The position numbers and the translations under genes were made by a program. This document shows positions 27,301 to 59,421 of a stretch of DNA of 64,000 bases, piece after piece. The stretch spans positions 102,111 to 166,110 of the forward strand of contig JBFMHM010000002.1 in the NCBI GenBank assembly GCA_040753015.1, given 5' to 3'. The notes beneath the pieces are model-generated. The model was not told the origin of the DNA. It worked only from the letters and a program-made list of their open reading frames with translations, and searched no databases. This DNA is from Candidatus Omnitrophota bacterium. GTDB taxonomy: Bacteria > Omnitrophota > Gorgyraeia > Gygaellales > JBFMHM01. Position 1 is the stretch's first letter; the number at the start of each line of letters is the position of its first letter.

Positions 27301-27302
27301 AA

Positions 27303-27809: not shown

Positions 27810-27820
27810 GTAAAAGATAC

Positions 27821-27857: not shown

Positions 27858-27879
27858 TTGTGTGTGCTAGAACTATAAA

Positions 27880-28287: not shown

Positions 28288-28382
28288 ATAGATAACGCCT
28301 CCTTTCTTAGGTATAATTAATCCCAAGCTTCTTTAAAAAATAAAATGAAACCAATAAAAAAGCCCTGATTACCTAATGTCTT

Positions 28383-28411
28383 AATTATATTTTAAATTAT
28401 TAAAAAAGTCA
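28383..28411 (-). promoter_or_regulatory. near-consensus sigma70 promoter for pilA (TTGACT, 17-nt spacer, TATAAT)
   Basis: The minus strand reads cattgacttttttaataatttaaaatataatta. Both hexamers match the consensus, with a 17-nt spacer. Confidence 0.55.
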
Positions 28412-28420
28412 ATGTTTTAT

Positions 28421-29617: not shown

Positions 29618-29618
29618 A

Positions 29619-30686
29619 TTATACCTTGTCTAATACCTTTAAAAAAACTTCAACAATTTTAGGATCAAATTGGCTCCCGGAATTCCTCTTGATTTCTTCT
29701 ATTGCCTCTTGTTTAGATAAAGGCGTCTTCCTATAAGATCTAGCAGAAGTCATTGCATCATAGCTATCAGCAACACAAATTATTCTAGCTCCTAAAGGAA
29801 TCTGTTCTCCTTTTAGCCCATCTGGATAGCCCTTACCATCAAAACGCTCATGATGATGTTTTATCAACCCGATTGTATTATCTAAAAAGGTTAATGGTTC
29901 TAAAATTTGAACTGCTTTAATTGTATGCAATTCTACCTCGCGCCTTTCTTCTTTGGTTAATTTACCAGGCTTACTTAAAATATAGTCTGATATGCCTATT
30001 TTACCCAAATCATGAAGTTGGCAAGCTTCTTTGATTATCTCAATTTCTTTCGCCGGTAGATTCAATTCTTCTGCAATTAATAATGCATACTTAGACACCT
30101 TCTCAGAATGGCTTGAAGTAAAATGATCCCTTGCTTCAATAGCCTGCGCAAAAGCATTAACAGTACGTAGGTATGTCTGCCTTAAATCATCATATAACCG
30201 GCTTAGATTTTTTGTCGAATCTTCGATCCTTTTCGCAAGCAGTATATTTTGTTTTTGCAAAGACATATTTTGTTCAGATAAAGCCCTGTCAGCCTTATGC
30301 GAATGCACAGTTATATTCCTTGCTTCAATTGCTTTTTTAATAATAAAAACTAAATGGTTAAAATCAACAGGGAGATTTAAATAATCATAAATTTCTGCTC
30401 TATAAATTTCCGAAAAGACATCCGGGCTTAAATTTTCAACCAAAGCAATAATAATACTATCTGGATCTACTTCTTTTATCGCTCTAACCATATCAATGCC
30501 GGTAAGTTCTTCCGTGCTCCATTGAATAATAATGACATCAAAAGAAATTTTACGTATTAGATTAATTCCTGACCAAAAATGATTTTCGCTTTTAATTTGG
30601 CAATTCAAAATCATTAAAGCTTGTTTTATTGTCTTTACGATTGTTTCATCTTTATTAATAATCAAAATGTTAATATTTTCGTTCAC
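29619..30686 (-). CDS. pseudo-receiver / HD-GYP c-di-GMP phosphodiesterase
   Basis: The C-terminus has HD ... HHERFDGKGYPDGL. The N-terminal REC-like domain lacks the acidic pocket (NKDE replaces DDE) and lacks the phospho-acceptor Asp (IIIQWS). Confidence 0.8.
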   Translation of the reverse strand: MNENINILIINKDETIVKTIKQALMILNCQIKSENHFWSGINLIRKISFDVIIIQWSTEELTGIDMVRAIKEVDPDSIIIALVENLSPDVFSEIYRAEIYDYLNLPVDFNHLVFIIKKAIEARNITVHSHKADRALSEQNMSLQKQNILLAKRIEDSTKNLSRLYDDLRQTYLRTVNAFAQAIEARDHFTSSHSEKVSKYALLIAEELNLPAKEIEIIKEACQLHDLGKIGISDYILSKPGKLTKEERREVELHTIKAVQILEPLTFLDNTIGLIKHHHERFDGKGYPDGLKGEQIPLGARIICVADSYDAMTSARSYRKTPLSKQEAIEEIKRNSGSQFDPKIVEVFLKVLDKV

Positions 30687-30699
30687 AATGTTATCCTTT

Positions 30700-32397: not shown

Positions 32398-32399
32398 TG

Positions 32400-34109
32400 C
32401 TATTCATCCGGGGCTGTTATTCTTACTACCTCTTCTAAAGTTGTAATGCCTTCGCTTGCTTTCTCCATACCTTCCTCTCTCAACGTAAGCATACCTTCAT
32501 CCCTGCTTATTTTTTTAATCATGTATTCCTGGGCGCCTTCCAAAACAAGATCTCTAATTTTAGGCGTCAAAATTAGCACTTCAGCAATAGCAACTCTTCC
32601 TTTATAGCCGGTATTAAAACATTGCGCGCAACCTTTTGCTCTATAGAATTTTCTTGTTGGAATTTTTTTTAAATTCAGAGACTGCATTATATCATCGGAT
32701 AAAACATATTCTTCTCGGCAACTTACACAAACTTTTCTAAGAAGCCGTTGAGCAATAATCGCAATAACAGATGAAGTAATTAAAAAGGGCTCTATGCCAA
32801 TATTGGCTAAACGCATAACAGCTGCAGGAGCTGTTGTGGTATGAACAGTAGTTAATACTAGATGCCCTGTTAACGCTGCCTTAATTGATATATCAGCTGT
32901 TTCATGATCCCTAATCTCACCTACCATAATAACATCGGGATCCTGTCTTAATATTGAACGTAGGCAGCTTGCAAAAGTTAAATCAACCTCTGGCCTTATG
33001 TTAACTTGATTTATACCTGCCAACTGAAATTCAATTGGATCTTCAACCGTTATAATATTCTCTCTTGGGGTATCAATAAACTCTAATATAGAATATAACG
33101 TTGTAGTCTTTCCTGACCCAGTAGGGCCGCAAACAATAATCATGCCATGTGGTTTTTGTGAAGACCTCTTAATTCTATCTAATGCAGTTTGGGAAAAACC
33201 TAATTTTTCAATATCAAGCTGAGCTTGCGATTTATCTAATACGCGAAGAGCAACCTTTTCCCCAAACGAAGAGGCAATAACAGAAACACGAAAATCCACT
33301 TCCCGCGTACCTATTTTTATTTTAAAACGACCGTCTTGAGGAAGCCTATGCTCGGCAACATTAAGATTAGAAATAACCTTTATCCTGGAAACAATAGGCG
33401 CAAGCATAGATTTTGGCGGAGACTCCTGCTCTTGTAAAACACCGTCTATTCTATATCGAACACGCATCCTATTTTCTAATGGTTCAATTAAAATATCTGA
33501 TGCATACATATTAACTGCTTTTTCTAAAATCATGTTTGCTACTTTTATAACCGGGGCCTCATTTATAATTTGATTTATTGTAGCCAAAGAAAAAACTTCT
33601 TCTTTCTCGGCTCTAATTAACTCAATACTCCCGTCCTTAAAACCTTCGACCAGCTCTTCTATAGCTTCTTTTGCGCTTTCTTCATAATATTGATTTATAG
33701 TAGCATTAAGTTCTGAAGGAGAAACGATAACAGGAGTTATTTGATAGCCTGTAAGACTCTTAACATCATCGATTGCGAATACATCTAAAGGATCGCTCAT
33801 TGCAAGTGTTAGAGTCTTTCCAATCAAGGATACTGGGATAATTTGATATCGATGCGCTAAATCTTTACTGATGATTTTTATAACTGACCTTTCGATTTTA
33901 ATCCGCTTCAGGTCAATAATCGGGAATCCGAGGCCTTCGCTCAAAACTGGAAATAACTCTTTTTCTTTGATCAGATTATCTTCTATTAATATATCAACAA
34001 GCCTCTTCCTTCTCTTCTTGGCTAAATCAATAGCTTCTTTTAATTTGATTTCGGAGATTAAATTATTTTTTATTAAAATCTCATAAACTCTCTGAGCAAT
34101 TGATATCAT
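32400..34109 (-). CDS. GspE/PilB-family assembly ATPase, paralog 2
   Basis: The architecture matches paralog 1 (GPTGSGKTTTLYS; CVSC ... CAQC). It is about 45% identical to paralog 1 by eye. Confidence 0.8.
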   Translation of the reverse strand: MISIAQRVYEILIKNNLISEIKLKEAIDLAKKRRKRLVDILIEDNLIKEKELFPVLSEGLGFPIIDLKRIKIERSVIKIISKDLAHRYQIIPVSLIGKTLTLAMSDPLDVFAIDDVKSLTGYQITPVIVSPSELNATINQYYEESAKEAIEELVEGFKDGSIELIRAEKEEVFSLATINQIINEAPVIKVANMILEKAVNMYASDILIEPLENRMRVRYRIDGVLQEQESPPKSMLAPIVSRIKVISNLNVAEHRLPQDGRFKIKIGTREVDFRVSVIASSFGEKVALRVLDKSQAQLDIEKLGFSQTALDRIKRSSQKPHGMIIVCGPTGSGKTTTLYSILEFIDTPRENIITVEDPIEFQLAGINQVNIRPEVDLTFASCLRSILRQDPDVIMVGEIRDHETADISIKAALTGHLVLTTVHTTTAPAAVMRLANIGIEPFLITSSVIAIIAQRLLRKVCVSCREEYVLSDDIMQSLNLKKIPTRKFYRAKGCAQCFNTGYKGRVAIAEVLILTPKIRDLVLEGAQEYMIKKISRDEGMLTLREEGMEKASEGITTLEEVVRITAPDE

Positions 34110-42925: not shown

Positions 42926-43561
42926 TCAAGAAAAAATGTGCCGGATTATTTCATCACTTAATGCCTGCCTCGTAACAACCATTTTAATATTCTTAGTACG
43001 ATCTATTATATAAGCAATATGTTTTCTTTTTTTAATCTGTTTTAAATCGTTAGCAACAACTAAATCTGAATTATTTTTTAGTAGATCTTTATAAGAAGAA
43101 TTAATCAGCTCATCTTTATCTTTATTAACTTCTAATTTAAACTGGACTAGAAAAATTTTTGGATCATATTTTTTAATCAACCTGATAATTTTAGGTGTTG
43201 GAATGAGTTTTAAACAAAGATTATTTTTACCAGATTCTATTTTTTGTGCAGAAATTTTTTCAACCCTATAATCGCTTACTGCAGCTAGATGAATTACAGC
43301 ATCATATTTTTTTGTTTTGAGTTCTTGCTCTATTAAAGTAAACAGCTCGTCAAAATATTTAAAACGTTTAATTATAAGATTTGGATTTTTAAGGGTAAAG
43401 CTTTCAGTGACTGGGCCAAGCAATAACGTAACTTTTGCGCCTTGTTTTAGCGCAGTTTTCGTAATAGCAATACCAGTTGCGCCGCTTGAAATATTTGAAA
43501 TTACACGGACTTTGTCAATTGCAACCCATGTTGGGCCGCAAGTTATCAAAATTTTAGGCAT
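42926..43561 (-). CDS. coaB: phosphopantothenate-cysteine ligase (CoaB) as a separate gene
   Basis: It has the CoaB fold ([24 protein letters not shown]). It overlaps the coaC stop by 8 nt. Confidence 0.75.
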
Positions 43562-44129
43562 GCTTAATAATAGTGGATAAAATCAAATCGGCATCTGCCA
43601 TTGCCCCTTTACCAACAGTGCCGCAGGCAAGGCGTGAAATGCGTGGTTCAATAAAAATATATTTTCCGCCTGCTTGCCGGACAGGCAGGGGTATCTTTTT
43701 TAGCGATGCGATATTTTTTTGCATAATCTCGTTTTCCCACATATTTGTATTCATAGCAGGAGCGATTAAAACTTTAGTTTTTTTTGGCAAGGATAAAACT
43801 AATGCCGCTAATAAATTATCGGCAAAACCATAAGAAATTTTTGAGATTATATCTGCTGTGGCTGGGGCAATCACAACTAAATCTGCCCAGTTAGAAAGTT
43901 CAATATGCTGGCAATTAAATTCTGATATGGGTTTAAACATATCAGTGTAAACCGGATTTTGCGTAAGCGACTGAATTGTTAACGGAGTGATAAAATTACA
44001 CGCGTCAGGCGTAAGCACTCCCTTGACATTATAATTTTTGTGCTTTAAAACACTGATTAAATCACACGCCTTATAAGCAGCAATGCTTGCAGTTATTCCA
44101 ATAATGATGTTTTTATTACTAGTAGGCAT
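43554..44129 (-). CDS. coaC: phosphopantothenoylcysteine decarboxylase flavoprotein (CoaC)
   Basis: The flavoprotein N-terminus is IIIGITASIAAYKA. Confidence 0.8.
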   Translation of the reverse strand: MPTSNKNIIIGITASIAAYKACDLISVLKHKNYNVKGVLTPDACNFITPLTIQSLTQNPVYTDMFKPISEFNCQHIELSNWADLVVIAPATADIISKISYGFADNLLAALVLSLPKKTKVLIAPAMNTNMWENEIMQKNIASLKKIPLPVRQAGGKYIFIEPRISRLACGTVGKGAMADADLILSTIIKHA

Positions 44130-44133: not shown

Positions 44134-44382
44134 TTAAGATGGCTGGGCTATTCTATGTAAAAGCTCAGAAATAAAAGTTTGATACCTTATACCGAGCCGA
44201 TAAGCTTTATGTTTAATGTTTTCTAGGTCTTGCTTATTTACGCGAATATTTAAAACCGCATCTTTCTTCCTTGCAGATATAACACTAATAATTTGTTCGT
44301 ATTCCCGCTTATCCACAGGAACAAAATGCTCAAGATTATCTTCTATCGCCCGCTCTTCTTTTGTTAATTTAATCTTTCTCAT
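44134..44382 (-). CDS. BrnA-like antitoxin (RHH/CopG-like, DUF4415-type)
   Basis: The C-terminal GIRYQTFISELLHRIA resembles the BrnA G.GYQT.IN.ILR.Y motif. It overlaps the upstream toxin by 14 nt. Confidence 0.55.
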   Translation of the reverse strand: MRKIKLTKEERAIEDNLEHFVPVDKREYEQIISVISARKKDAVLNIRVNKQDLENIKHKAYRLGIRYQTFISELLHRIAQPS

Positions 44383-44659
44383 GGTTTCTCCTGTTTTTGT
44401 AAAATTTCGTTAACTTTCTGCTTGGATATATCGTCTTCAAAAATATTATTTCGCCATCTATTACATACGGCACAGCCCACAGATAACCTTTATACTGATA
44501 AATAAGAATTTTCTGATTTTCTCTATTTGGATGCCTACGTATGTCTATTAGCTTTGAAGCAATGATTTCTTCAAACGAAACGCCGCGCGTTTGCTTAAGA
44601 CGCTCGCTCTTTAATTGGCTCCATCTAATATCTTTCATACATTTATTTTGTATATACAA
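44369..44659 (-). CDS. BrnT-like toxin (DUF497, RelE-fold ribonuclease)
   Basis: Conserved elements are W....NE.NQ.KHGVSFEE and RIISAR-like IFLKTIYPSRKLTKFY. The toxin-before-antitoxin order matches BrnTA. Confidence 0.55.
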   Translation of the reverse strand: MYIQNKCMKDIRWSQLKSERLKQTRGVSFEEIIASKLIDIRRHPNRENQKILIYQYKGYLWAVPYVIDGEIIFLKTIYPSRKLTKFYKNRRNHEKD

Positions 44660-44695: not shown

Positions 44696-47600
44696 TTAAT
44701 GATTTAACGCTTCGATTTGGATGAGGCTTAGATCAATGCCGCCAAGGTTAACGGCGCCTTGCGATGGCTGACTTAATGCCTCGGCTGGGCTTTCGCCAGT
44801 GTAAACTCTTGCTCTCTCCTCTAGCGACAATATCGTGCCTGCACGATCGGTTATTTCATCGGAGGAAGCGCCGGCGCGCTGCAATAGCGCCTCGACTGCT
44901 TGATTCCAGTCGGATTGCCTCTTGACTTCTTGTTTTGCCATTATTGAAATAATAACATCTGAAATAAACAATACTATATTACTTATGCCAATAAATCCTA
45001 AAACAATTGGCATCGCAGAAAAAGAAAAACCTAAAGCTATCCCGCCCACCGTTAAATTAGCAAACGGCCCAGCTAATAAAGTAGCTACTTTTTTCCAAGT
45101 TGAAGCTCCCTCATAATTAATATCTGCGCTAGACCAAAGGTTGATCGAATTCACTTTTAATCCAAATAACTTCGCAGTTAAAATATGAGCTGCCTCGTGT
45201 AAAGGCAAAGCAACTACAAAAGCGCTAAACCGTAATAAATTACCCCGCCCGCCCCCCTCTCTTAATAACGCTGCTGTAATTGAACGCGTAGGCTCTCTTC
45301 TATCTACAAAAATAACACCCTTTTTCTTAAAAAAATCATAAAGCTTCTGCTCAGTATCGTAAATCACGCCTAACCTTTCATTATTACTATTTCTATCTTT
45401 ACGAATCGTAGCATTTCTAATTTTATTACCGTTTAAATCGCCATGAAACATTTTTGCGGAAAAGAGATCTGCGTCGGAGAGATCTGCAAAGGAAAGATCT
45501 ACACCACGAAGGTCTGCCTCGGAGAGATTTGCCTTAAAAAGGCTTGCGGTCGAAAGGTCTGCATTGTAAAGGATTGCGCGGGTAAGTCTTGTATTAAAAA
45601 AGCGTGAATTACTAAGGTTTGCTCCGGTAAGGTTTGCATTAAAAAGGTTTGTACGGGAAAGATCTGCGGAGGAAAGATCTGCACCGATAAGATTTACGTA
45701 GCTAAGAATTGCGTTAGTAAGAATTGCACGGGAAAGCTTTGCACCAGAAAGATCTGCGTAGCGAAGCTTTACGCCGGAAAGATCCTTACCAGAAAAATCA
45801 AATTTTGAAAGATCAAGCCTATAAAAAACAGCATTTTTAAAATAAGAAGCTTCGGATAAACTCTTCAAAGCCCTCACAAATTCATCATTAACTACAACTG
45901 TTTGGCCATCTTGAAGAGGCGAGCTTCTAAGATAATCTTGCTTGGCTTGATTAAATTCATCTATTTTTTGTTCTAAAGTTTTACTTGAATCGTTTAAAAT
46001 TTCTGTGAGCTGTTGTAATGTTTCCGCCCAGCCTTCTGGCGAAACGGCTGTAGGCCCGGCAGCTGACGGATCTGCTGGCGGAGTTACATCCGGAGGTGCT
46101 GGTGGCTGTTCATCCTGAGCCTGTCGAAGGACTGGCGCGTCAGCGGCTGGTGCTACAGGCGCAGGAGTTCCAACTTCAGACTCAATTACCTTGCCATCTT
46201 TATCTACTCTTTGCCCTTGCTCGTTAACAAAAATAATACCACGTTCTTGAGTTAAATATCTATATAATCTATCCATATCAAGAGTAACTTCTTTTAAACT
46301 TTTATAGCTTCCTGAATCCAATATCATCGCGTCTTGAATCTTATCTTTATCTAAGTCAGAAAATAACATCCTTGCTCCGGAAAGGTTTGCGTTGGCAAGG
46401 CTTGCGCCGGTAAGGGTTGTACCGCAAAGGTCTGCATTGGAAAGGTTTGCATTAGTAAGGTCTGCGCCAGTAAAATCTGCACCGCGAAAGTCTGCGTAGG
46501 AAAGAACTGCGCCGCGAAGGTCTGCGCCGGAAAGGTCTGCGTTGCGAAGGTCTGCGTAGGGAAGAATTGCGCCGCAAAGGTCTGCGTAGGGAAGAATTGC
46601 GCCGCGAAGGTCTGCGCCGCGAAGGCCTGCGTAGGAAAGAACTGCACCGGAAAGGTTTACGCCGGAAATGTCTGCGTTGCGAAGGTTTGCGTTGCAAAGG
46701 TATGCGTTGCGAAGGTTTAACCTTGAAAGATCTAACCTATAAATAGTACTACCTCTATTATAAAAACATTGTTCTAAACCTTTTATAGCGGTTATAAATT
46801 CAAAATTAACTGCAAGCACCTCACCTTCACTAAGAGGCGAACTTGCAAGAAAATCTTGCTTAGCTTGGTTAAACTCATTTATTTTTTGTTTTAGGGTTTT
46901 ACTAGTATCGCTTAAAATTGCTGTAAGTTGTGTAAGCACACCATCCCAACCTTCTGGCGATACGGCTGTTGCGTCATCTGCAGCTGGCGGATTAGCTGGA
47001 TCCGCTGGCGGAGCTGACGCAGGTGGCTCACCTCGTGGAACCGCAGATGCATCAGCGGTAGGCGCAGCTGCAGCTGAAACAGCACCGTCAATCACATTAC
47101 CATCTTTATCCACAGCTTGCCCTTGCTCGTTAACAAAGATAACACCCCGACTGGTCAGATAATCATACCGCTCTTGTTTAGTTGAATAAACATCATCCAA
47201 TCTTCTCCAAGTCCTAGCATCAATAAATAGTAAAATACCATTAATTTTATCAGTGTCTAAATCACTATAAAACATAACTGTTTGAGAAAGGTCTGGCCCC
47301 ATCTCTTTTTTTCTAGAAATGTATTGCGCGTAAGAAAATATTGCTCCTGATCCCCGACGTGCTATTATTTCAGCATTGCGTCTTAAATACACGTCCTCGG
47401 AAAGATCAAATGGTGCGAAAAGTCTTACACCAGAAATATCCTTTCCAGAAAAATCTAACCTAGAAAGGTCGAGTTGAATACAAATGGCGCTAGCTTGTCT
47501 ATTAAAATACCATGTCCGCTCTAATCTTCTTAAGCCATCCGCAAACGCATCATTAACTTTAAATGTTTGGCTAGATTGAAAAGGAGAGCTTCTAAGATAA

Positions 47601-50600
47601 TCTTGCTTGGCTTGATTAAATTCATCTATTTTTTGTTCTAAAGTTTTACTTGAATCGTTTAAAATTCCTGTGAGCTGTTGTAATGTTTCCGCCCAGCCTT
47701 CTGACGAAACGGCTGTAGCCTCTGCCGCAGGCCTCGCCGTTTCCTGGCGGGCTGGTGACGATGGATCTGCGGGCGGCTCGGCTGGTGGCGGTGCAGGCGC
47801 GTCAGAGGCTGGCGTAGCTAATTTTTCTCTTAAACTAGCAATTAATTGTTCATTATTCGCGCTTTCGCCAGATTCTTTCAGTAAACGAATAAGCTCATTA
47901 ATTACTGCTTGCTGTTGTAATTGCTCTAGAGTAAAACCATTATTAAGAAGCATTAAAATAATTTTAGCAGCCTTATCATCTGTTAGATTCGTTTCGTCTG
48001 CAATAGTCTCTAAAAAATTACCCATTTGTCTATTTACGCTATCCAATAATGCCATATCTATACCTTTTTCTTTTAATAATTGTGCCTGGTTTTGGACAAT
48101 AGCAGTATAGGCGTTGACTTTAAGTAAAGGTTCACTATCAGGAGTTCTTATTGCCATAGCAATAGCATTTGCAAATTCACCTGTTTCTGCACAAACTTGG
48201 ATAATTAAGTCAGAAGCTAAGAGTCTTTTGTAATCGTTACTACTGTCATTGGGAATTTCTTCTGCCGCAGCGCGTGCATTTTTAAGGTTTCTTTCTATTT
48301 TTCGTTTTGGTATTTTTGCTTTTATCTGAACTCTAGCAACAAGAGAATAGGCATTGGTTTTATAAAAAGGCTGGTCCTGATTATCGGGAATTTTTTTTAT
48401 CAAATTAATAATCAATCGCAAAATATCTTCTACTTCATTCATCGGCCTACCTATTTTTGCCTGGGTTTCGGCAATTATAAGAAGAAGGAGCGCTTTCCAA
48501 TATTCACCAGGTGCGAAAGTTCTTTCCGTTAACGTAGAAGCCAATCGCAAAGTATCTTCTACTTCATTCATTGGCCTACCTATTTTTGCCTGGGTTTCGG
48601 CAATAAATGTATAAGCTCTAATTTGGTCATCATAAGTTGCATCTGCATATCTTGTTGGAAGTTTTTCTGCTATATCAAGAGCTTTATTAATGTTTTCGAT
48701 TATTTCTTCTGTTGGCCTACCTGCTTGTGCTTGAGCTTGAGCAATAGAGGTATAGGCTTTAATTTGTGCCCAAGGGTCATAAATGCTTATTTCTTCTACC
48801 ATAATAATAGCCTTGTTAAGACTAGTAGATATTTCATCTTCCGGGCTACCTATTTCGATTTTAACTTGGGCGATAAATGCTTGGACGGCAGCTTGCGATG
48901 CACGATTAAGCGCAGTTGCAGCGATATCGGCTTTATTAATGTTTTCGATTATTTCTTCTGTTGGCCTACCTGCTTGAGCTTGGGCAATGAGTGCATAGGT
49001 CATAGCCTTATCAGGATCATCATCCTCCATCCTTATTACCAGGTTGAGAGCATCATTAAATCTGTTTAACGTTATAAAAGTTTCGATAACAGTGATGGTG
49101 GCTTTTTCTTTTTGGGAAGAATCATCAAATCTTTCTGCTGCTGCGATAGAGGCTAAACGTAAAGCTAAATCTTGCGTATGAATAGTTTTCAAAATTTCTG
49201 GAGTTAATACTACTGGTTCTCTTGCAGGCATTCCTGGATCTGCCGGCGGTTCGTCTAAAGGCGCTTGCGTAGCGGCTGATGCAACTAGCCCAGGAGGAGC
49301 TGGCGCGTCAGGGGCTGGTACTACAGGCGGTGTCGTCGGTTCGTTGCCAAACAAAATTGGAATTCGCGTGGATCTTGGAAAAGTTGGGCTGTCGCCTGTA
49401 CTAGGCGTAAGCCCGCAACTTACTTCAATCGCAGTTTTTGAAACACCTAATTCTCTCATTAAAAAATTAGCCAAAATGCCTTGTAACTGAGAGTGGCCTT
49501 GCAATGCTTTAAGCTGTTCTGTTGCAGCTTGAATAAATGCGGTTTTAATTGATGCGTCTGATTGTTGCGGCTCTGCCGCCTGCCCAGCACTTTGAAGCCT
49601 TGCGTGTTGTTCAGAAAAAAGCGTATGCGCCCGGCCAATAACATAATTAGAAACTCTTACGCCTGCTAACGACCCAGCCAAAACACCAGCCAAACGTTGC
49701 GCCACAAGAGGAACAGCGCTTCCAGCTCCGCCGTTTGGCGCAGTTGGTGAAGCAACACTTACAAAACGTAAAATTGCATCAGGCAGCGCACTTAATGCTT
49801 CTCTTTTTGCTTTTTCTATTTCAAGCATTGTTGCTCCAACTGGCACGCCGATAACTAAAGTTGCAGCCGGCGCAGTATCTGGCGTTTCTACTTCTCCGAT
49901 ATCAACATCCGCAGCAAGTTCAACACCATCTGTCGGTTCAAACCTCACAGCTACTTGAACCTCGGGAATTTCGTCAGTTGCTGGAACTGTGACAGTTTTT
50001 GCATCACGATTTGCTAACTCCACTCTAACTGCTCGCGCTCGTTCTGGAGTTAACTGCTCGAACGTTCTAGGAGCCTGTGGAGTAACGCTAGTTCCACCGG
50101 GTGCCATGCCTACCGGCAGGCAGGCACTAGGATCAGGCTCTGGCCTTGGCCCAGAGTCAACCCATTTTACTTTTTGCCGCATATCAGGGTCAGCTAAAAC
50201 AGTATCTGTTGCATTGGGTGAAACCAAAAACCATTTGCGGCCGCTAATCTCTCCGTCGCAAGCCACAGCGCCTGCTTCAATATCTCTTGCTAAGGCGCAA
50301 TGCCCCAACATCACAACTAAATTATTTTTTTCGCCGGAAAAAAATAAATCTTTAGCTTGTCTGCCAGCATATCTCTGGCAAACTAACGAACCATTATTTT
50401 GATAAATCAACTGGCTATCGCCTGAAACTCTGTCAATTAACTCAAAACTAAAATTTGCATCAGACGGTTTATACAAGCGAATAATCAGCTCTGAATTATC
50501 TTTCTTTAAATATACCTCTATTTTACCGTGTTCATCCTCTAAAGTTTTTCTAATATAAATAGCATTTGGCTCTTCTCTATCCCTAACTTCATCCTGCCTC

Positions 50601-53600
50601 CACTCTAAAGCCTTAAAAATTGCTTCAACTTTCTTTTCTTCAACTTCTTGATAACCGTCAATAGGAATATCGACAAAAAGCTTAGTTGTATTTTGCTCTG
50701 TCTGGTTTGCAAAACTAAATGTTGCGCCTAATTTGCGCAATTCATTTCTAACCCTAAAGTAAGGCTCTAATGCGTGATATTCTTTTCCTTGCATACATAA
50801 ATTACCTAAGTCGCCTTCGCCTGCCTCGAATAAAGCAGTTTTTAACCACTTACGAAGTGGTGCAGAAAAACTTATTTCTAAACGCAAATGATTGCCAAAG
50901 CTAAGCCAACTAACAGTAATTCCGCTATCTGCCAACTCACTTTGCCAACGCTCTATATCATTATTGTCAATTTGTCCAGCCTCTGGTGGTTGGACAAATT
51001 GATCCTGAGCACCGTCGAAGGATCTTAATCTTACGCCAAGCTGAGGCTGGCGATAAACTTCAGCCAATAAGCGGCCTTCTTGATTAAATGCGTGGCGCAT
51101 TGCGGTTTCTTTTTTGGCAAGCGTCAACCACTGGCTAACTAATTGCATTGCAAATCTAATTTGTTGTTTATTTTTATCTGGCTTAGGCACGCTAGTTTTT
51201 AATCTTTGCTTTTCTGCATTCCATTCTCTATCAGGCCTGCAAAAATTAATATCACTAGTTAAGAATGTCTCTGTCCCAGCCATAGCCAAAGCTTCACCTC
51301 TTGTTTCTTCAATAGCCATCCAAGTAATTTCAAGCGCCTCGGTTACAGCTTCTTGGGTAATCTCACTAATTGGCCTTTGGTACAGCTCTTCTAAATTCCT
51401 CATCTGCATTGCTTCAACTTCTGTCATCTCTTGGCCAACAACCCGAGCAACTGCGGGGATAAATTTAAACCTTAAATCTCCGTCCACAACAAAAACCTCA
51501 ATAGCATCACCATCATTCCAAGCATCTCGTTCATATAATCCACTGGCAAATTTAGTTAAATTTTCCTTAAACTTATCCAACACATTAGCAAGCGGCCGCG
51601 CTCCTTGGCCTGCCTCAAACCCAAGCTTGTAAAAATAATCTAGCACTGCCGTCTTATGTTCCGGGCTAACTCTAACCTCAATTGGATAAAACTTATTTCT
51701 TGCATCTTTATAAACCCAATTTTTATAGGGCTTTAGTTTTGCTTCTGCCATTGCCTTAAACATTGCCTCATCCATAAATTTAAACGGAACTATTTTATCA
51801 AGCCGCGCTAAAAATTCCGGACGGTATTTATATTTATGATAAGCTGATATTTGTGCATCTAATTCGTCGTAAAAACGCGTAAGCGCTTCTGAGTCTGTTT
51901 GTGCTGCATCAAGTGCCTTTTTGTATTGCTGGTAAGCGTCTGGCCCACCTGTTTGAGGTGTTAAAAAACGGCCTGTTGCCGCGTCATAAGTTTCTTCAAC
52001 GCCGCCGTTTGAGGTAAAGATAATAATACACTGGCTAAAAGAAACTGTGTTGCCTTTTGAGTCAGTTAAACGCCCATCGTCGGTAAGAGACAATAAAAGC
52101 ATCAATATTTCTTCTTTGTCAACGCGATGCAATTCATCAAATACGATTACACTTTTTGGGTTGCGTTTTACTTGACTGGTCAACCAATTTTCTGAATCAT
52201 CATGCCCAACATATCCGGGCGGTGCACCGATTAATCTCGTGCTAGAATCCATATCAGCCATAGGCACATGAATATAATTATACCCTAACTCGCTAGCTAC
52301 CACCCTTGCTAATTCTGTTTTACCCACACCTGTTGGCCCAGAAAATAAAAAGCTGCCTACAGGTTTATTCGGTCGCTTTAAACCGGATTCAGCACGATAA
52401 ATTGCACTAACCACTAAATCGACCGCCTCATCTTGGCCAACTAAACGGGCTTTAATACGCCCTTTTAAACTTAACAAATCACTAGTCTTTCTCTGGCTAA
52501 CAAGCAAAGAATCAACGCCGCGTTTAATTAAAAATGAGCGCACATCTTCTATTGTCGGGGTAAGCTTTACATCCTGCCTGTCAACACTGCGCCAACGCCT
52601 AATTTCGGCAAGTGATTCTGCTTGTTTTACTGGCTGGCTTCTTCGTTTTGCTGCCTTTATTTTTTCAGCTAAGACACGAGCAATATTACGTTTTTCTTTT
52701 ACCGGTTGTTTTTGTAAACCTATCTCTTTTGCTTTTGCACTATAATGCTGATCGAGAAATTCAGCCAATAACATCTTATGGTCTTCGTCAGCTAAGGCTA
52801 TAGCAAATAACGACAAAGCCTGCTCCATTAATTCAAAAGGCATTAAATCAGTTGTTTCTGGCAAAGCCCCAGTTATCGGCGATATATGCTTTGCATAATA
52901 CGCCCTTCGTAACACAAGCCACATATCTTCAACTTGCCCAGCCTCTGGCGCTTGGGCAAGTTGATCTCGAGTCCCTGCGAGAGATCTTTCTAATAAATCA
53001 ACACGGCTAAACCATTGTTCATAAAGCGGGTCTCTTAACACAGCCTCTGAACTAGTTGATAGAATTAATCTCCCCTTCTGCTCATCTTTAAACGCGCTTA
53101 AGAATTGCCCTAAGTGGAACTCCGCGCCAGTTGGTAAACCATCTCTGCCTTGAGCGCTAATACTAGCTTTTTGAAAACTATCTAAGTCCAAATAAACAAC
53201 CGTGCGTATTCCTTTTTTCTTATCATCGTCGGCAATTGCATCTAAAAGCCTGAGCACAGTTGCCTCAAACTTTCCTGCCAAACTAAATGTAGTTGCAAAA
53301 CTAGAAAACTTTAAACTAAGAACTCTGACATTTTCTTGGCCATTCAATTTTCCCTCACAAGCTAAGCGGCTATATTGCTGGACTAATTGCTCGGTTGCTT
53401 TTTGGTTTTTTGCCCAAAGAAGAGGAAAATTTCTGCGTGCTTGAGCTTGAATTGATAAAACGCTTACCATTGTCTCTGGGTTAATACTTTCTTCGGGAAT
53501 TCTTCCTTGGCTAGAAAACGCCGTCAGATTTACCACCATTTCATTTAATTCTTTTTCTTGCTGTTTTATCTTATCAACTGAAGCTTCATCGGCATCTTCT

Positions 53601-56600
53601 GGAATGGGTAGGGAAATTTTAAGTTTATCATTATTCCAAGCAGCATTAGGCGGAACCTGTGCAACAGGTGTTGGCAAAAGCGCTTGCTTTGCTTCTAAAT
53701 TAGAAGCAGCTAAAATTGCTCTTGTTGTTGGATGAAGCGCCTCTTGCGCTTGTTGCCTAACTACTTCACCTACCGGCTCAGTTAATTTAAAAGTAATTTT
53801 TCCTTCACTATCAGCACTAACTGAAATTTGAGTTCCCTTGGGATATTTTTTTGCAACTAAAATTTCTGCTAATTGCGAACCAATTAAATTATCAATAGCA
53901 CGAGCCATAGGACGCGCGCCATTAACCGCGTCATAGCCTGCCTTAAGAATTACCTCTTTTGCCGCATCATCAAAATTAAGAACATAACCTTGGTTAGCCA
54001 GTTTTTCTTTTAACATATCGAGGATAAAATCGCGGATTTTTTCAATTTCTTTTTTGCGCAAACGCTTAAACACCAAAATTTCACCGATACGGCCTTGCAT
54101 CGAATTTATAAAATAACGATTAATTCTTTTCCTTATTTCATCTTGTATGCTTTCTTCCATAACATCAAGTAACTGACTACGGCTTGCACTACTTAAATCT
54201 TTACCAGCTTCCTCGCTATGCCTATTTACTTGGCTAATTAAGCGGCAAACACCCAGCCTTTCTTCCCTTGCCTTAGACGTCATTACCTTTAATTTTTGAA
54301 TATAATCCCATAGGCCGCCAAACGCCTCTTCGCATTGCCTGCGTTCTTGCGGCAGCAATCCAAATTCATCAAGCCTAGCAAATCTTCCAGCTTCACCTTG
54401 TTTGGGAAATCGATCTGGCACACAATCAGGTTTTTGCGCCCGCAAATATGCCTTTAATGCCGAATCTCTATTTGCAACAAGCGGGCTAATCCAAAATTCC
54501 TCAATATTATCCAAAACATCTTCTAACGTCAGGCGTTCAGGAAGAAAATCTAATTGGACGCTGTTTAATGCCCTGCTAAATACACCGCCCGGTTTAAGCG
54601 TTTCCTCAATAAGTTCAGCCACTTCATTAAACACATCTTTATTATATGCACGAAGCTGAATAGCTGCCTGCTGCAACCTTTGGCGCTTAGCAGCTGCAAC
54701 ACGTCTTCCCATTTCAGGATCCATTGCTTGCAACTCTTTCTGTGGTTCATCTTCAATAGCTACTTCTTTACCAGCTTTTTTGTATTCATCAATTTGCTTT
54801 TCTTTTTCTGTAATTTGACTCTGCAATCTAGTCCTTTCAGCATCGACACTGGCCCTGTAAAAAGCAATCTTAAGCTCATATAATTCGATATATTCACCAA
54901 ACACATCAATAAGTTGCTTAGTGTGTTTAATATGTTCTAAATTTAGCTTAACATTTTGTTCAAGAGAATTCTTGTATTCAGCTTGCTGGCGCTTTAAAAG
55001 CACGAGCAACTGCTCGGCTTTTCTATGCTCGTCGGTAATTTCAACCCTAAACCATGAATAATCACTTGCCGCAAGCTCTGTCTCGTCTTGCGCCTGAGTA
55101 AACTCCTCATCACTCATTAAATCTATTGCATCCATTGCCCGATATGCGTCGTAAATTTCCGGAGTCATGCCTAAATTTGAAGTCATTGCAATTAAGTGAT
55201 TAGTTGCCGATAAAGTTTCTCCTGTTGAACTTTGTGTTGTGCCTGTATCAAATAAATCATATAAATTTTCTAATACATCCGGATGCGCCTTTTCAAGTTC
55301 ATCCAATAAAAGAACACCAATAGGCGAGGCTCGTAAAATTTGCACTAATCGCCCGCCATTTTTATCATAACCAACATAACCTTGCGGTGCGCCCATAAGT
55401 TTTGTTTTAGCAAATTCATCTTGCAGCTCTGCCATATCAATGCGGCCCATTTTGCCGTCAAAAATAAGCTCAGCAATTGCTTTTACAAGCTCGGTTTTTC
55501 TACGCCCGTTGGGCCTGCCAACATAAAAACACCAATTGGTTTATTTGGCTCTTTTTGTCCGTTAACAAATAAACGAATTTTTGCTAAAATGGCATCGACT
55601 ACATGTTCGTGGCCAACATAACGCTTTGCTAAATTTTCTTTAAATCTATCAACGCGCGCTCTAATATCACCGGTTAATAAGCTAACTGTAGTTTGCGCCT
55701 CTTTTGCCAGCGCAGTTAAAACTTCTTCTTCGCTAATTCTTACGGATGGGCCTAAAGTTGTATCTACATCGCTTGCGCCCGCCATTACCATTACCCAATA
55801 ATCCAGGCGGCCAGTTAAAAATTCAACAAGCTCTGGTGTGTTAGCCTGCTCTAACTCGCCAATTAAAGCCAAGGCTCGGCTTCCGGCATAAGCTCTATCT
55901 AAATTACTCCTGTATTCTTGTTTTTTATTTTTATCAACTAAAAGTTTCTGAATTAAATCTATTGCAATTTCCCTTTCTGAAGCTTTAGGCAAGAATTTTT
56001 TAGTATAACCCATAATCCGCTTTAAAAATTCAAACGCATCATCGCTTTCAATTTTTAAATTTAAAAGCTCGTTATGCACGGTTTTAAACCACGGTAACCC
56101 CTCTTCTAAAAGCCGCAAAATTTCATCTGCCTCTTTTTCGAATTCAGGAGAGCTAGATAGCTCGTAACGTTGAGGATACTCCATAATTTGAGATATTTCT
56201 TTCCATTTGTTTCTAGGAAATACCGCCTGAATTGTTTTAGGCTCACCGCCAATAATTACAGGAATTGGGCTTTTAAGAAGCTCATCTAATAACCACTCTA
56301 AGCGCGAGCCAAGCTTAAACTTCAAACTCAAAATTCCCGCGTATTCTTCAGCATCAATATAAAAAGCTAAATTACGGCGCGTGCCTTTTTTTTCTGCATC
56401 GTGATACACCTTGCGCATATTGCTGACAAAAGCGCGAACAACCTTTTCAAAACCATCTGCCTGCAAAAACACTCCGCCGGCTAATAATTTTTTAATATCT
56501 AATTTTAAAATTTCTAACTTTTGTAAAGAAACTGGCAATGGGCTGTCATCAAGGCTTGCTTGATAAGCCAAAGAACGTATTGTCTGCTCTACTTCTCTCG

Positions 56601-59421
56601 GATGGCCGATTAAAATAATATTATTATTACTTGTATTTTTAATTTCATCTAATCTATCTACAAAACCTTGATCTGGCCTTTGGTGTAAACTTAAACTTTG
56701 CGAAGAGCCTTCGAATGTTTCTATCTTGGAAAGATAAGCCATCAAGTTTTCTTCAGTTTCTCCTTCTCTGCCATCGTCTGGATATATAGGAGAATAAAAA
56801 TTACCGCCTACTAGAGGCGCGCCAATCATTGCTGCCATAGCAGCAAAAACATCATCGCCAGAAGAGGCATCACCAAAAAACTTAAAATAAAACCAGCGAA
56901 ATAAATATGCGGCCGGAATTAATAATAAAGGTAACAATAAAGATTTTAATATTGTGGTTTTTGCAGGGCCACTGCCTGGCCTTGGCGATTTTGGACCTTG
57001 ATCATCAGTCTCTGTTTCTGCTGCTTTTTTACGCAATGCGTCCCGTTGTTCTCTAGCGTCTGCGCTATAATCATGATGATGATCAGCATGAACAGTTCCA
57101 TCAGCGTGGCGATGCTGGCCTTCAGGAACACCGTGATGATGTGGATGTCTTGCGCCACTAACGTTACCATCGTGATCGCGGTGAATATGCTTTACAAGCA
57201 TCCTGTTATGTATTCTACCTATCCTAGCCTCTACTTCATTTCTCTTGCCAGCCTTAATTCTAGGCACTCTCGTGCTATAGCCATAACGGGTTTTTTCTAT
57301 TAAGCCTTTTTTAGAAAGTGCACGTTTAATAATTTCCTTTGCTTTATCTTTATCGTTCTCGTCTAACTTTCCTTCACCAATTGCCTGCTCTGCAATTTCA
57401 TCAGCCAACCTCTCAATTACTTCCGGATTATTTGTTCCGTTCTTTCGTAATTTACCATCATTTAAAATATTTAAAAGTCCTCTTGTAATCCAAGTGCGGA
57501 AATTATGCTCCATCGTAAGATCGCTGATATCACTATCTTTATCAGCTTCTTCAACTGACGTATTAATTTCATCTAAGATTTCATTTAACAGTTCCTCATC
57601 GCCTTTATCATCATCTTCATCTTTATCATCTTCATCTTCATAATCATCGCTATTTTTACGGCTATCTTCTATTTGTGCCAACCGCCACATCGGACCACAA
57701 CTCGCTCCTATTGAACCCTCGCTAACATCTACATCTGTATCTTCAGCGATTTTGTTGCCCCTTTTTTGCTCCTCTACTACTCTATTATGCGCTTGTATCC
57801 AATTTAAACCTTGTTTGCGATAATATATTTCGCGTTGTTCGTGCAACAAAACATCAGTATCTAAGGTACTTTGAAAACCAACTATACGCCAAACATTATC
57901 TGTACCTTTAAAATTAATTGCCTGTACGCCATCATCTAAGTTAATTGCCCATCTTTTGAGCACATCAATAATTCTTTGCGCGTCTTGATCCCTAACATTA
58001 TCATTAATCGCAATAATTCGGTTTCCCACATCATCTGTATTAGTTTTAACTGCCCCCAGCTTATCAAGCTGTGTAATACAATATTCAACAATCTCTCGAT
58101 TACTAGCGTTTTGTGATAATTCAGGAACTTTCTTACTTCTTGCCAAAACTCTTAGAATTCTTAAAAGATTTTTTAGATTCTTTACATCAGATACTTCTGC
58201 GCCAATATCTTCTGGTTGCCCAATGCTTACCGTAATTGTAACTGGCACCCTGCCTGCCTCTCCCGCTGTTGCTAGCTGTGTAGGAATTTCTCCTGTTGGC
58301 GCAAAAAGTACACCGCCTGAGGCATAGGTGCGGCGGATTTTATGATTTATCGTAGGGGCGAAACCATGTTTTCGCCCATTAATTATAGGGCGATTACGCG
58401 GAATCGCCCCTACAACATCAACCAATTTGTATTCGCCTTTTGTTGAGTTTAGATAAGATTTGTAGATTTGTTCTGGTTTAAACTTAAGGTTGTTGGTTTT
58501 TTGGTAGGTTTTTATGAATTGCTCTAACTTTTCGCTTTTCGCTTTACTCTTTACGCTTTTTTTGTACCATTGTGCAAAAATGAGTGCTTGATATATTTGT
58601 CTAAGTGGTTCATAGGCTTTGTCTTGGTTTACTCGTTGAGTTAGTTCTGGGAGTATTAGTTGTTTTAGATGAGATTCACAATATTCCTGTAGTTCCTCAG
58701 TTCGTCTGTTCTTCAGTTCGTCAGTTCGTTTGTCATTGGAAATTGGGATTTGGGATTTCTCAAGGTATTCGCTTTCTAGAAGCACCTTGAGCGTTGCTTT
58801 AACTATTGTTATTGAGCTATCTGTCTCATAGACCCTTGCCTCATCTGGCACTATCCAGACACGAAAGGTAGTTGGTACTTTGTAGTTAGTAGTTTGGTTT
58901 TGTTGTTTTGGTCCTAATTTTAAATTTTGAGTTATAGTTTTACCTTTTTCGTTTTGAGTTTTTACTTCCAAAGTTTTGGCTTTAGTAAATACTTTATCCC
59001 AATAGGTTTTAGCATTTTTACCATAACCGGGTAATAATTCAAAGGCTGTGTCTTTCTTAAGCTTTAAATCTAATACTAAGAGCGCTTTACCTAAATCAGT
59101 ATCAGCTATTGTATTGCCGATGATTCTACTTGGGTCATTAGGGTTTAGATTAACCCAAAGATCTTTGTAGTCTATAGATAGGCTAGTAAAGAAATAATCT
59201 AGAAGTTCTTTGGTTTTAAGCTTCTTTTGTTGTTCTGAGAGGTTGCGAGGAAGAAAGTTGAAATTAAAATTAAAACCTGAATTTAGACTAAGCGAAACAA
59301 ACGAGGCGTTTGGGTCATGCACTTTTAGGCTAACAACTTGGCCAAAGCTAATACTCTGGCAAAGAAAGGTAAATGCCAAAAATAGACAAAAAATCCTCTT
59401 TATATGGTTTACTTTAATCAT
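44696..59421 (-). CDS. giant multidomain protein, about 4,900 aa as a single reading frame interrupted by one frameshift near 55.49-55.50 kb
   Basis: ORF 55483..59421 ends ...FMLAGPTGVEKPSL* and ORF 44696..55450 starts MGRIDMAE.. LMGAPQGYVGYD. Restoring one G (GTAGGAAAAACC) gives the contiguous ClpB-D2 sequence [30 protein letters not shown]. The domain content is listed in the findings. Confidence 0.7.
45923..46052. repeat. intragenic direct repeat of ~130 bp, near-identical (3 mismatches) to 47591..47720, with a diverged third copy at ~46845..46975
   Basis: I aligned the two copies by eye (agcttctaagataatcttgcttggcttgattaaattcatctattttttgttctaaagttttacttgaatcgtttaaaat...ccgcccagccttctg.cgaaacggctgtag). 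Each encodes SPEGWAETLQQLT.ILNDSSKTLEQKIDEFNQAKQDYLRSSP. Confidence 0.8.
46340..46760 (-). repeat. pentapeptide-repeat coding block (15-nt periodic tandem units, A(D/N)LxG-type)
   Basis: The protein reads NLRNADISGVNLSGAVLSYAGLRGADLRGAILPYADLCGAILPYADLRNADLSGADLRGAVLSYADFRGADFTGADLTNANLSNADLCG. Two further blocks lie at ~45430..45860 and ~47270..47520. Confidence 0.8.
55493..55503 (-). other. single-nucleotide frameshift site inside the Walker A codons (observed GTAGAAAAACC; GTAGGAAAAACC needed for GPTGVGKT)
   Basis: The downstream frame is open through the site and encodes ...[29 protein letters not shown]. The upstream frame terminates 3 codons later. Confidence 0.7.

Follow-up and report, generated by a model that had tools for sequence, protein, structure and literature searches.

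Tandem hairpin modules, two of them with pentapeptide-repeat beta-helices, in a very large, predicted membrane-anchored protein from Omnitrophota

What are the three repeated modules that lie near the C-terminus of a large Omnitrophota protein, and what might they do there? The window that we analyzed is a 64,000-nucleotide stretch of DNA from an uncultured Candidatus Omnitrophota bacterium. Within it, an open reading frame on the minus strand (ORF2; 44696-55450; 3584 amino acids) encodes three tandem modules of 211, 264, and 255 amino acids, with periods of 249 and 306 amino acids. The preliminary description gave a length of about 370 amino acids, which is too long, and an interval of 45430-47830, which leaves out the tail of module 3. 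It also proposed a self dot-plot, and module-scale diagonals are indeed present, at offsets of 1665 nucleotides (modules 1 and 3), 918 nucleotides (modules 2 and 3), and 747 and 906 nucleotides (modules 1 and 2). In the protein, the modules are marked by SxEGW motifs at amino acids 2582, 2831, and 3137 and by R/KG[VI]IFV tails at amino acids 2768, 3070, and 3377.

At NCBI, the ORF2 protein is listed as MEW5758408.1 and annotated as [quoted passage not shown] Its N-terminal portion is encoded separately, by ORF1 (55483-59421, minus strand; 1312 amino acids). The two reading frames are split by a frameshift of 1 nucleotide at 55493-55503 (minus strand), within the Walker A motif of the first AAA+ domain: the sequence reads GTAGAAAAACC instead of the expected GTAGGAAAAACC (GPTGVGKT). 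Once the frameshift is repaired, ORF1 and ORF2 are predicted to form one very large, membrane-anchored protein of about 4,900 amino acids. A hydropathy scan of ORF1 identified a signal-like segment (amino acids 9-30) and a transmembrane helix (amino acids 822-846), and the end of ORF1 contains the beginning of the first AAA+ domain, as far as the Walker A motif. Overall, the host protein comprises a predicted signal peptide, an N-domain, the transmembrane helix, two AAA+ domains of the ClpB-NBD2 type, and helical repeats, after which come the three modules and a putative S2P/M50-like core. At least 45 other proteins, with lengths of 740-2260 amino acids, match the N-domain (amino acids 7-400 of ORF1), and those with a named source are mostly labeled as Omnitrophota. 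The phylum, the signal peptide and transmembrane segments, and the common N-domain are all features of the large membrane-anchored proteins of Omnitrophota.

The AAA+ region matches AAA_2 in two stretches (183 bits) and ClpB_D2-small (72.9 bits), which supports the assignment at the level of domains. The GYVG pore loops and the Walker B and sensor motifs are intact. We rejected the idea that this region is a full-length ClpB (346.8 bits for the ClpB equivalog, against a cut-off of 1232), so these are NBD2-like modules only. At the C-terminus (44921-45295, minus strand), there is a putative S2P/M50-like core of a membrane metalloprotease, with HEAAH and AGPFAN motifs. It scores 30.7 bits against Peptidase_M50 (PF02163; cut-off 27.2) if the C-terminal domain is scanned alone and 23.7 bits within the whole protein. 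The match spans just positions 5-106 of the 221 positions in the profile, and the LDG motif is not recognizable.

An intact module is predicted to begin with a helix-loop-helix hairpin of about 50 amino acids and a short N-cap. These would be followed by a right-handed quadrilateral beta-helix of pentapeptide repeats, with about 6.5 coils, and an alpha/beta tail of about 50 amino acids. Modules 2 and 3 are intact, while module 1 lacks the beta-helix and has kept the hairpin and the tail. All of these features are on the minus strand. Module 2 has its hairpin at 46829-46978 (amino acids 2825-2874), its N-cap and beta-helix at 46346-46828 (amino acids 2875-3035; about 27 units in about 6.5 coils), and its tail at 46187-46345 (amino acids 3036-3088). 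Module 3 has its hairpin at 45911-46060 (amino acids 3131-3180), its N-cap and beta-helix at 45431-45910 (amino acids 3181-3340; about 26 units), and a truncated tail at 45296-45430 (amino acids 3341-3385), which directly abuts the membrane domain. The Pro/Ala-rich linkers are 31-42 amino acids long and are 48-61% proline plus alanine. Linker 0 (47726-47818; amino acids 2545-2575; 61% proline plus alanine) precedes module 1, linker 1 (46979-47092; amino acids 2787-2824) precedes module 2, and linker 2 (46061-46186; amino acids 3089-3130) precedes module 3.

The beta-helices of modules 2 and 3 are easily recognized. The scores against the pentapeptide repeat family (PF00805; gathering threshold 20.2 bits) are 176.9 bits for module 2, 107.4 bits for module 3, and 201.3 bits for the whole protein. 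The fraction of conforming pentapeptide units is 25/29 for module 2 and 24/27 for module 3, which agrees with the earlier estimates of about 24 and 22 units; shuffled sequences had 5.4-5.7 conforming units on average and 11 at most (n=1000). Each of these two modules therefore has at least eight tandem units of the A(D/N)LXX type in a single register, which is above chance. We predicted structures for modules 1 and 2. The AlphaFold2 model for module 2 (pLDDT 90.4, pTM 0.86) is a right-handed quadrilateral beta-helix, as had been expected, with the hairpin and the tail also visible.

At the DNA level, the body of module 2 contains one 15-nucleotide tandem array and one 60-nucleotide tandem array. 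Between the pentapeptide bodies, identity along the module-level diagonal is 60%, as compared to 55-57% on other diagonals with a 15-nucleotide shift. Because the body diagonal is barely above the shifted ones, the homology of the modules rests mainly on the hairpin, the N-cap, and the tail.

Module 1 begins with a hairpin (47576-47725; amino acids 2576-2625) and a remnant of the N-cap (47420-47575; amino acids 2626-2677) that resembles module 3 (72% nucleotide identity). These are followed by a degenerate body (47273-47419; amino acids 2678-2726) and an alpha/beta tail (47093-47272; amino acids 2727-2786) that resembles module 2 (77% nucleotide identity over RGVIFVNEQGQ...). Module 1 is a mosaic in this sense. 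The body was thought to contain a shorter and degenerate run of pentapeptides. Instead, no run is detectable statistically: just 5/15 units conform, as compared to 3.5 on average and up to 8 in shuffled sequences. We also found no match to PF00805 at E ≤ 0.1. The structural model for module 1 has an overall pLDDT of 53.5, and the value for the body is about 22, with no confident fold there. So, the proposal that every module has the same four parts holds for modules 2 and 3, while the beta-helix of module 1 fails every test.

Conservation across the three copies is strongest in the hairpin, where the invariant positions are concentrated. This segment was originally described as a helix. It is common to all three modules, but the prediction is of a helix-loop-helix hairpin rather than a single helix. 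We did not find relatives of the hairpin/N-cap or of the tail in genome and metagenome DNA collections, nor relatives of the hairpin/N-cap among 1.84 billion protein representatives. In these collections, the end-pieces have no counterpart elsewhere, while the beta-helices of modules 2 and 3 are of the ordinary pentapeptide-repeat type.

The hairpins of modules 1 and 3 are nearly identical at the DNA level. Specifically, 45921-46053 (module 3) and 47586-47718 (module 1) are identical at 131/133 nucleotides, which bears out the earlier report of about 98% identity over about 130 base pairs. (The interval first given for the second repeat, 47591-47720, is 3 nucleotides out of register and yields 94% identity with gaps.) Two substitutions separate the copies, their longest exact run is 81 nucleotides, and the flanks diverge gradually. 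For the third copy (46795-46981), identity is 72% over 187 nucleotides, or about 75% over the segment originally delimited. Within the tract shared by modules 1 and 3, the same codon is used at 48/49 positions with a shared residue, as compared to about 66% for the other pairs in the same segment (P ~ 4e-8). This comparison of paralogs at the synonymous level shows a homogenized tract and indicates recent gene conversion. Both parts of the earlier proposal, intragenic duplication and gene conversion, are thereby supported: the sequences point to duplication within the gene, followed by recent conversion between the hairpins of modules 1 and 3. The conversion tract would be about 135-190 nucleotides long.

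Could the repeat structure be wholly or partly an artefact of assembly? If the contig were joined chimerically or collapsed at the tract of about 135 nucleotides, then the true number or order of the modules would be different. The source is a metagenome-assembled genome, the exact run of 81 nucleotides is longer than the k-mers used by many assemblers, and the frameshift 8 kb upstream implies that the consensus may have at least one error. Also, module 1 looks like a chimera, as its front is like module 3 and its tail is like module 2. However, the reading frame is open for 3584 codons through every junction, in a genome with about 33% GC, and the two substitutions between the repeat copies and their gradually fading flanks do not indicate an abrupt break. 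Furthermore, the body of module 1 occurs nowhere else in the gene, and its tail shares just 77% identity with the module 2 tail, which argues against a copy-paste join. We consider an artefact to be unlikely. A decaying pseudogene, in which the modules are functionless relics and the near-identity is an accident of recent recombination, strikes us as a little less improbable, though still doubtful. With a frameshift in the Walker A motif that splits the gene and one module that has lost its beta-helix, the gene may be decaying and its modules might have no current function. We also found no orthologue of the host protein in the collections that we searched, so cross-species conservation cannot be used as evidence for function. 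On the other hand, both fragments are open, over 1312 and 3584 codons, and the genome is rich in AT, which implies that inactivation was very recent or that the frameshift is a sequencing error. The near-ideal pentapeptide registers of modules 2 and 3, the confident fold for module 2, and the intact Walker B, sensor, and pore-loop motifs also argue against decay.

Because pentapeptide proteins of the Qnr/MfpA/AlbG type mimic B-DNA, it was suggested that the modules might do so as well, binding gyrase or another DNA-binding protein while tethered to a membrane protein. We think that this is very improbable. The NCBIfam scores are far below the cut-offs (84.2 vs. 240 for Qnr, 59.9 vs. 360 for MfpA, and 80 and 63 vs. 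450-460 for QnrA and QnrB). The net charge of the pentapeptide body is -2 for module 2 and 0 for module 3. For the whole modules, it is about -8 and about +1; these are computed net charges rather than maps of the surface. The repeat register is unbroken in both modules, so loops of the Qnr type are absent. The topoisomerase-protecting mimics Qnr, MfpA, AlbG, and McbG are free-standing dimers; Qnr and MfpA have about 180-220 amino acids and pair tail to tail. In contrast, these modules are embedded between flexible linkers in a much larger protein, and the genomic context of the host gene has no link to topoisomerases or to toxin biosynthesis. The likeness in fold is to pentapeptide proteins in general, with a designed solenoid as the best match. 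Finally, module 1 dispenses with the beta-helix and retains the hairpin.

The closest likeness is to PF00805/Rfr proteins such as Np275 and Np276 from Nostoc, Rfr32 from Cyanothece, Rfr23, and the designed beta1 solenoids. These share the single-register runs of A(D/N)LXX and the predicted right-handed quadrilateral beta-helix, with strong matches in both sequence and fold. Solenoids in the pentapeptide repeat family often have helices as caps at their ends. The modules differ from these proteins in that they are in tandem within a protein of about 4,900 amino acids, are flanked by a hairpin and a tail, and include a copy with no beta-helix. We also considered multidomain proteins in which a pentapeptide beta-helix serves as an interaction module. 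The type III effectors PipB and PipB2 were rejected (102.3 vs. 274 and 95.7 vs. 354 in NCBIfam), and the scores for SopA/NleL, which combine a beta-helix with a HECT-like E3 ligase, and for DotG/IcmE from the Dot/Icm system were also under the family cut-offs. The host protein has no HECT domain, type III signal context, or type IVB secretion genes, and its partner domains are Clp-type AAA+ and S2P-like.

The explanation that we find best overall, and that we consider to be just on the probable side, is that these duplicated and partly converted modules function as rigid docking or spacer elements in the cytoplasm, rather than as DNA mimics. Of the functions suggested in the preliminary description, a scaffold for protein-protein interactions is the most likely reading. 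Duplication within the gene would have given rise to the three paralogous modules near the C-terminus of the host protein. In the cell, they would be in the cytoplasm, preceded by the two AAA+ domains and followed by the S2P/M50-like core. This placement comes from just the hydropathy scan and the premise that AAA+ domains require ATP from the cytoplasm. There, the modules might act as rigid, rod-like elements for protein-protein docking or spacing on flexible tethers, and the hairpins might provide a common surface for binding or self-association.

More speculatively, the module might be an undescribed, lineage-specific adaptor that couples Clp-type AAA+ unfoldases to an S2P-type protease in one polypeptide. 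We view this as a long shot. If it were true, the host protein would be an FtsH-like machine for membrane proteolysis that was assembled from unrelated parts, and gene conversion might keep the hairpins identical because they have one common partner or because they bundle with each other upon oligomerization. By analogy only, the host protein brings together AAA+ modules, with GYVG pore loops, and a membrane metalloprotease-like HExxH core in one polypeptide, much as FtsH fuses AAA+ to a membrane-anchored metalloprotease. However, the AAA+ domains of the host protein are of the Clp NBD2 type, its protease is M50-like rather than M41, and the gap between ATPase and protease is over 2,000 residues. 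S2P proteases of family M50, such as RseP and SpoIVFB, have regulatory extramembrane PDZ or CBS domains. Again as an analogy only, module 3 of the host protein is an extramembrane domain that directly precedes the protease core and so occupies the place that PDZ or CBS domains have in those proteases.

The host protein resembles the long proteins of Omnitrophota (10.1101/2023.11.21.568195; 10.64898/2026.06.07.730766) in its phylum, its signal peptide and transmembrane segments, its mixed cargo of domains, and its internal repeats. Another shared feature is a T2SS/T4P-like cluster of genes in the vicinity. A signal peptide and transmembrane topology with cytoplasmic cargo is reported to be the common architecture among those proteins (10.64898/2026.06.07.730766). 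At about 4.9 thousand amino acids, the host protein is far shorter than the thresholds of at least 10 thousand or at least 30 thousand amino acids that those studies used. Also, the nucleotide-level repeats in the long genes have mostly decayed (10.64898/2026.06.07.730766), whereas the host gene still has tracts with 96-98% identity. Pentapeptide repeats are not mentioned by West-Roberts et al. 2023 (10.1101/2023.11.21.568195) or in the 2026 preprint (10.64898/2026.06.07.730766). The GC3 of the host gene (0.30) is in line with that of its neighbors (0.20-0.33) and gives no hint of a recent foreign origin.

The pentapeptide-repeat region at 45430–47830 lies within a single minus-strand ORF (ORF2, 44696–55450, 3584 aa), whose product has the same sequence as NCBI MEW5758408.1, encoded on a 260-kb contig ([quoted passage not shown]). 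Each of the three tandem modules has a predicted helix-loop-helix hairpin of ~50 aa, a short N-cap, a body corresponding to the pentapeptide run, and an alpha/beta tail. Two motifs mark the copies: SxEGW starts at ORF2 aa 2582, 2831, and 3137, and R/KG[VI]IFV at 2768, 3070, and 3377. The modules are 211, 264, and 255 aa long and are separated by linkers of 31–42 aa that are 48–61% Pro+Ala. A preliminary description, made without database searches, had proposed a ~370-aa module repeated three times. The finding is real, but several details needed correction: the three modules follow one another with periods of 249 aa (747 nt) and 306 aa (918 nt). Self-comparison of the DNA gave diagonals at offsets of 1665 (89 shared 15-mers), 906, 918, and 747. 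Inside the pentapeptide bodies, the diagonal at offset 918 is only marginally the best (60% identity, versus 55–57% for other shifts by multiples of 15 nt), so the homology between modules rests mainly on the hairpin, N-cap, and tail.

Although pentapeptide-repeat domains are abundant, to our knowledge only a few of them have a known function. Modules 2 and 3 clearly belong to this family: they match Pfam's Pentapeptide model (PF00805) with 176.9 and 107.4 bits, and 25/29 and 24/27 of their units conform to the repeat in one uninterrupted register each, close to the ~24 and ~22 units of the preliminary description. In 1000 shuffles of these modules, there were never more than 11 conforming units. 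Module 1 had been thought to contain fewer, degenerate pentapeptides, but its 5/15 conforming units are within the range of shuffled sequences (mean 3.5, maximum 8), and it has no match to PF00805 at E ≤ 0.1. Tandem Repeats Finder reported a 15-nt array and a 60-nt period (one coil) in module 2 only. A profile of all three modules matched only pentapeptide-repeat proteins among PDB sequences, and only via profile positions ~77–221.

We modeled module 2 with AlphaFold2, using the three copies as the alignment (pLDDT 90.4, pTM 0.86). The model is a regular beta-solenoid with five-residue periodicity (residues ~75–208). It is preceded by two helices (11–26 and 32–49) that form a hairpin, rather than the single helix previously suggested, and by a short helix (62–69). 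The tail has a helix, a small sheet, a longer helix (231–248), and a beta-hairpin (252–269). The best structural match was the designed pentapeptide solenoid 4yfo (score of 18.6), followed by MfpA (15.8), a pentapeptide-repeat protein from Clostridium botulinum (6fls; 15.2), AhQnr (14.9), AlbG (13.6), and SopA (9.8). None of these matches aligned more than 178 of the 274 residues, and Foldseek agrees. Module 1, modeled in the same way, had a pLDDT of just 53.5 overall: 75–84 for the hairpin, 51–75 for the tail, and ~22 for the central 60 residues. Modules 2 and 3 are predicted to be genuine beta-helices, while module 1 is a relic with the end-pieces only.

The near-identical DNA repeat links module 1 to module 3: 45921–46053 matches 47586–47718 at 131/133 nt, with an exact run of 81 nt. 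(The second interval had been placed at 47591–47720, which is out of register by 3 nt.) The third copy, said to be about 75% identical, is 72–75% identical by our measurement. A codon-aligned comparison showed that module 1 is a mosaic. Its hairpin is 93–100% identical to that of module 3 at the nucleotide level and its N-cap is 72% identical, while its tail is nearest to that of module 2 (77% nucleotide identity). Modules 2 and 3 are moderately similar throughout. Where modules 1 and 3 have the same residue within the hairpin tract, they use the same codon at 48/49 positions, as compared to ~66% for the other pairs of modules in the same segment (binomial P ~ 4e-8). This excess of shared codons shows that the tract was homogenized at the DNA level, either by gene conversion or through partial duplication in very recent times; constraint on the protein alone would not explain it. 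The only two differences within the tract are both non-synonymous (S/P and G/E). The positions that are invariant across all three copies cluster in the hairpin. As the preliminary description proposed, these patterns are a clear indication of intragenic gene conversion, and the module region is a clean, small case of concerted evolution within a bacterial gene.

There are signs of similar events elsewhere in ORF2. The helical-repeat region just before the modules (48101–49063, minus strand) contains repeated ...AQAQAGRPTEEIIENINKA... and ...IAETQAKIGRPMNEVED.LRL... sequences, and its sole Pfam signal is a weak match to TPR_12. It includes two pairs of DNA repeats of 56–63 nt with 96–97% identity (48413–48475/48542–48604 and 48681–48736/48930–48985), which makes it another place in this gene where sequence was recently duplicated or converted. 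Also, a 30-nt segment of the Pro/Ala-rich linkers recurs ~3.2 kb away with 93% identity (46132–46161/49300–49329), which suggests that the linkers share ancestry or have exchanged sequence as well. In a survey of long genes from Omnitrophota, nucleotide-level repeats had mostly dissolved (10.64898/2026.06.07.730766); in contrast, this gene retains repeats of 96–98% identity. Small same-strand ORFs at 46351–46697 and an antisense ORF at 47670–48110 simply result from the repeats and from the composition of this region.

ORF2 is the larger part of a broken gene. The upstream ORF1 (55483–59421, minus strand, 1312 aa) breaks off partway through a Walker A motif, with GPTGVEKPSL* as its last residues. 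If the frame is shifted by one base at the end of ORF1, then the reading goes on into ...KTELVKAIAELIFDGKMGRIDM..., where ORF2 begins. Also, ORF1 aa 1226–1310 align to positions ~527–612 of ClpB and ORF2 aa 1–94 align to positions ~629–721. Since the shifted reading continues and the two ORFs match consecutive segments of ClpB, we infer a single gene of ~4,900 codons that was broken by a 1-nt deletion. The deletion (55483–55515, minus strand) falls in the first ClpB-NBD2-like AAA+ domain, inside its Walker A motif, GPTGV-G-KT: 55493–55503 reads GTAGAAAAACC on the minus strand, and GTAGGAAAAACC would give GVGKT. Programmed frameshifting at this junction is unlikely, as there is no canonical slippery heptamer (X XXY YYZ), and a –1 slip would still replace the conserved glycine of Walker A with glutamate.

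With highly similar repeats and a frameshift within Walker A, errors in the MAG consensus need to be distinguished from true biology. The repeats themselves are probably not an assembly artifact: the reading frame is intact, identity decays gradually at the edges of the tract, and module 1 has a unique body and a diverged tail. The frameshift, together with the decay of module 1, could instead indicate that the large gene is a pseudogene. Yet in this AT-rich genome neither of its fragments is interrupted by a stop, and the repeats of modules 2 and 3 are close to ideal. The 1-nt deletion is therefore either an error in the consensus or a very recent inactivation.

The joined protein would begin with a signal-like segment (ORF1 aa 9–30) within an N-terminal domain (ORF1 aa 7–400; 58222–59403, minus strand) that has no Pfam match, followed by a transmembrane helix (ORF1 aa 822–846). 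The first AAA+ domain spans the junction between the ORFs and has an insertion of ~325 aa (ORF2 aa 95–419; 54194–55168, minus strand). The insertion lies between the nucleotide-binding and D2-small subdomains and is apparently helix-rich. A second NBD2-like AAA+ domain is at ORF2 aa ~979–1340. Both domains have recognizable GYVG pore loops, Walker B, and sensor motifs in their sequences. PADLOC matched the AAA+ domain alone to ClpB-like defense ATPases (PDC-M37B, DolB), which we did not take as evidence of a defense system. Next are ~800 aa without detectable homology: for ORF2 aa 1300–2130 (49061–51553, minus strand; 830 aa), we found no homolog at E ≤ 1e-3 in a search of 5.8 billion proteins, and no Pfam family. 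Then come Pro/Ala-rich linkers with the helical repeats, and the three modules. The C-terminal membrane domain (44921–45295, minus strand) begins ~15–20 residues past the truncated tail of module 3 and contains HEAAH and AGPFAN motifs. When scanned alone, it matches Peptidase_M50 with 30.7 bits (cut-off 27.2), but only across the first half of the profile.

The N-terminal domain is shared with at least 45 other large proteins (740–2260 aa, 25–73% identity). Those with a source name are mostly labeled as Omnitrophota, and five are paralogs within the same MAG. Their cargo varies and includes HEAT, HD, phosphoglucomutase, metallophosphoesterase, receiver, methyltransferase, and NUDIX domains; none of the carriers listed has a pentapeptide domain. 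From this distribution, the N-terminal domain looks like a phylum-specific module for export or anchoring, with interchangeable cargo. Giant or long proteins of Omnitrophota are reported to be multidomain and membrane-anchored, with a signal peptide and transmembrane segments, and type IV pilus or type II secretion-like loci adjoin their genes (West-Roberts et al. 2023, 10.1101/2023.11.21.568195; 10.64898/2026.06.07.730766). Neither study mentions pentapeptide repeats. As with the giant genes of West-Roberts et al., a type IV pilus or type II secretion-like cluster lies near this gene, 10–25 kb away (20194–34109, minus strand). It includes a secretin (20194–21873, minus strand) and two adjacent GspE/PilB-type ATPases (30700–34109, minus strand).

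Searches of very large databases detected no relatives of the elements that flank the pentapeptide bodies. A HMMER profile of the hairpin and N-cap, built from the three copies and compared exhaustively to 1.84 billion protein representatives, matched only this protein. DNA-level scans with the hairpin and N-cap found no relative in 185,579 species-representative genomes, JGI metagenome contigs, or viral contigs, and scans with the tail found none in the species-representative genomes or the JGI contigs. Searching Pfam with the isolated hairpin and tails gave only noise (DUF7833, E = 0.023; PAS_3, E = 0.048). With the last 1044 aa as the query, we found only generic pentapeptide proteins, at 25–50% identity and via the repeats. 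The modules are a well-known type of domain. Their modular form, which appears in no other sequence that we searched, is unusual, and so is the protein that hosts them.

What might the modules do? Pentapeptide proteins such as Qnr and MfpA had suggested that they could be DNA mimics, and the model of module 2 does resemble both, but this similarity reflects the generic fold of the family. Matches to the Qnr and MfpA models fall well short of the cut-offs, and the net charges of the pentapeptide bodies are –2 (module 2) and 0 (module 3). Furthermore, the register of the repeats has no loop insertions, the domains are not free-standing proteins, and one module lost its beta-helix while keeping the hairpin. 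DNA mimicry is therefore improbable. The best-supported reading is that these are putative docking or spacer modules. Since AAA+ domains need ATP, everything past the first transmembrane helix is probably cytoplasmic. In that case, they would sit as rigid ~30 Å rods, held by flexible tethers, after the ATPase modules and before the site-2-protease-like core, with module 3 abutting that core. The hairpin is the most conserved part and the one that was homogenized, and module 1 has lost its beta-helix entirely, which suggests that the solenoid may not provide the functional surface; instead, the hairpin could be a shared surface for binding or self-association. The setting is unusual for pentapeptide domains, with Clp-type ATPase modules on one side of the tethered array and a protease-like core on the other. 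As we did not find an ortholog, their functional significance is speculative.

We also considered whether horizontal transfer could explain the raised GC content (40–44% versus ~33%). We rejected this because GC3 (0.30) is in line with the neighboring genes (0.20–0.33). The excess is at codon positions 1 and 2, which reflects a composition rich in Ala, Pro, Gly, and Arg, so the raised GC is compositional and not a sign of foreign origin.

Just downstream of the giant gene are two small overlapping ORFs (44134–44659, minus strand; 96 and 82 aa). The second has a sub-threshold match to a CopG antitoxin (25.8 bits versus a threshold of 28), so this pair may be a toxin-antitoxin system. Next to these, at 42926–44129 (minus strand), a CoaC-like flavoprotein and a CoaB-like DFP domain are encoded by separate overlapping genes instead of a fused CoaBC.
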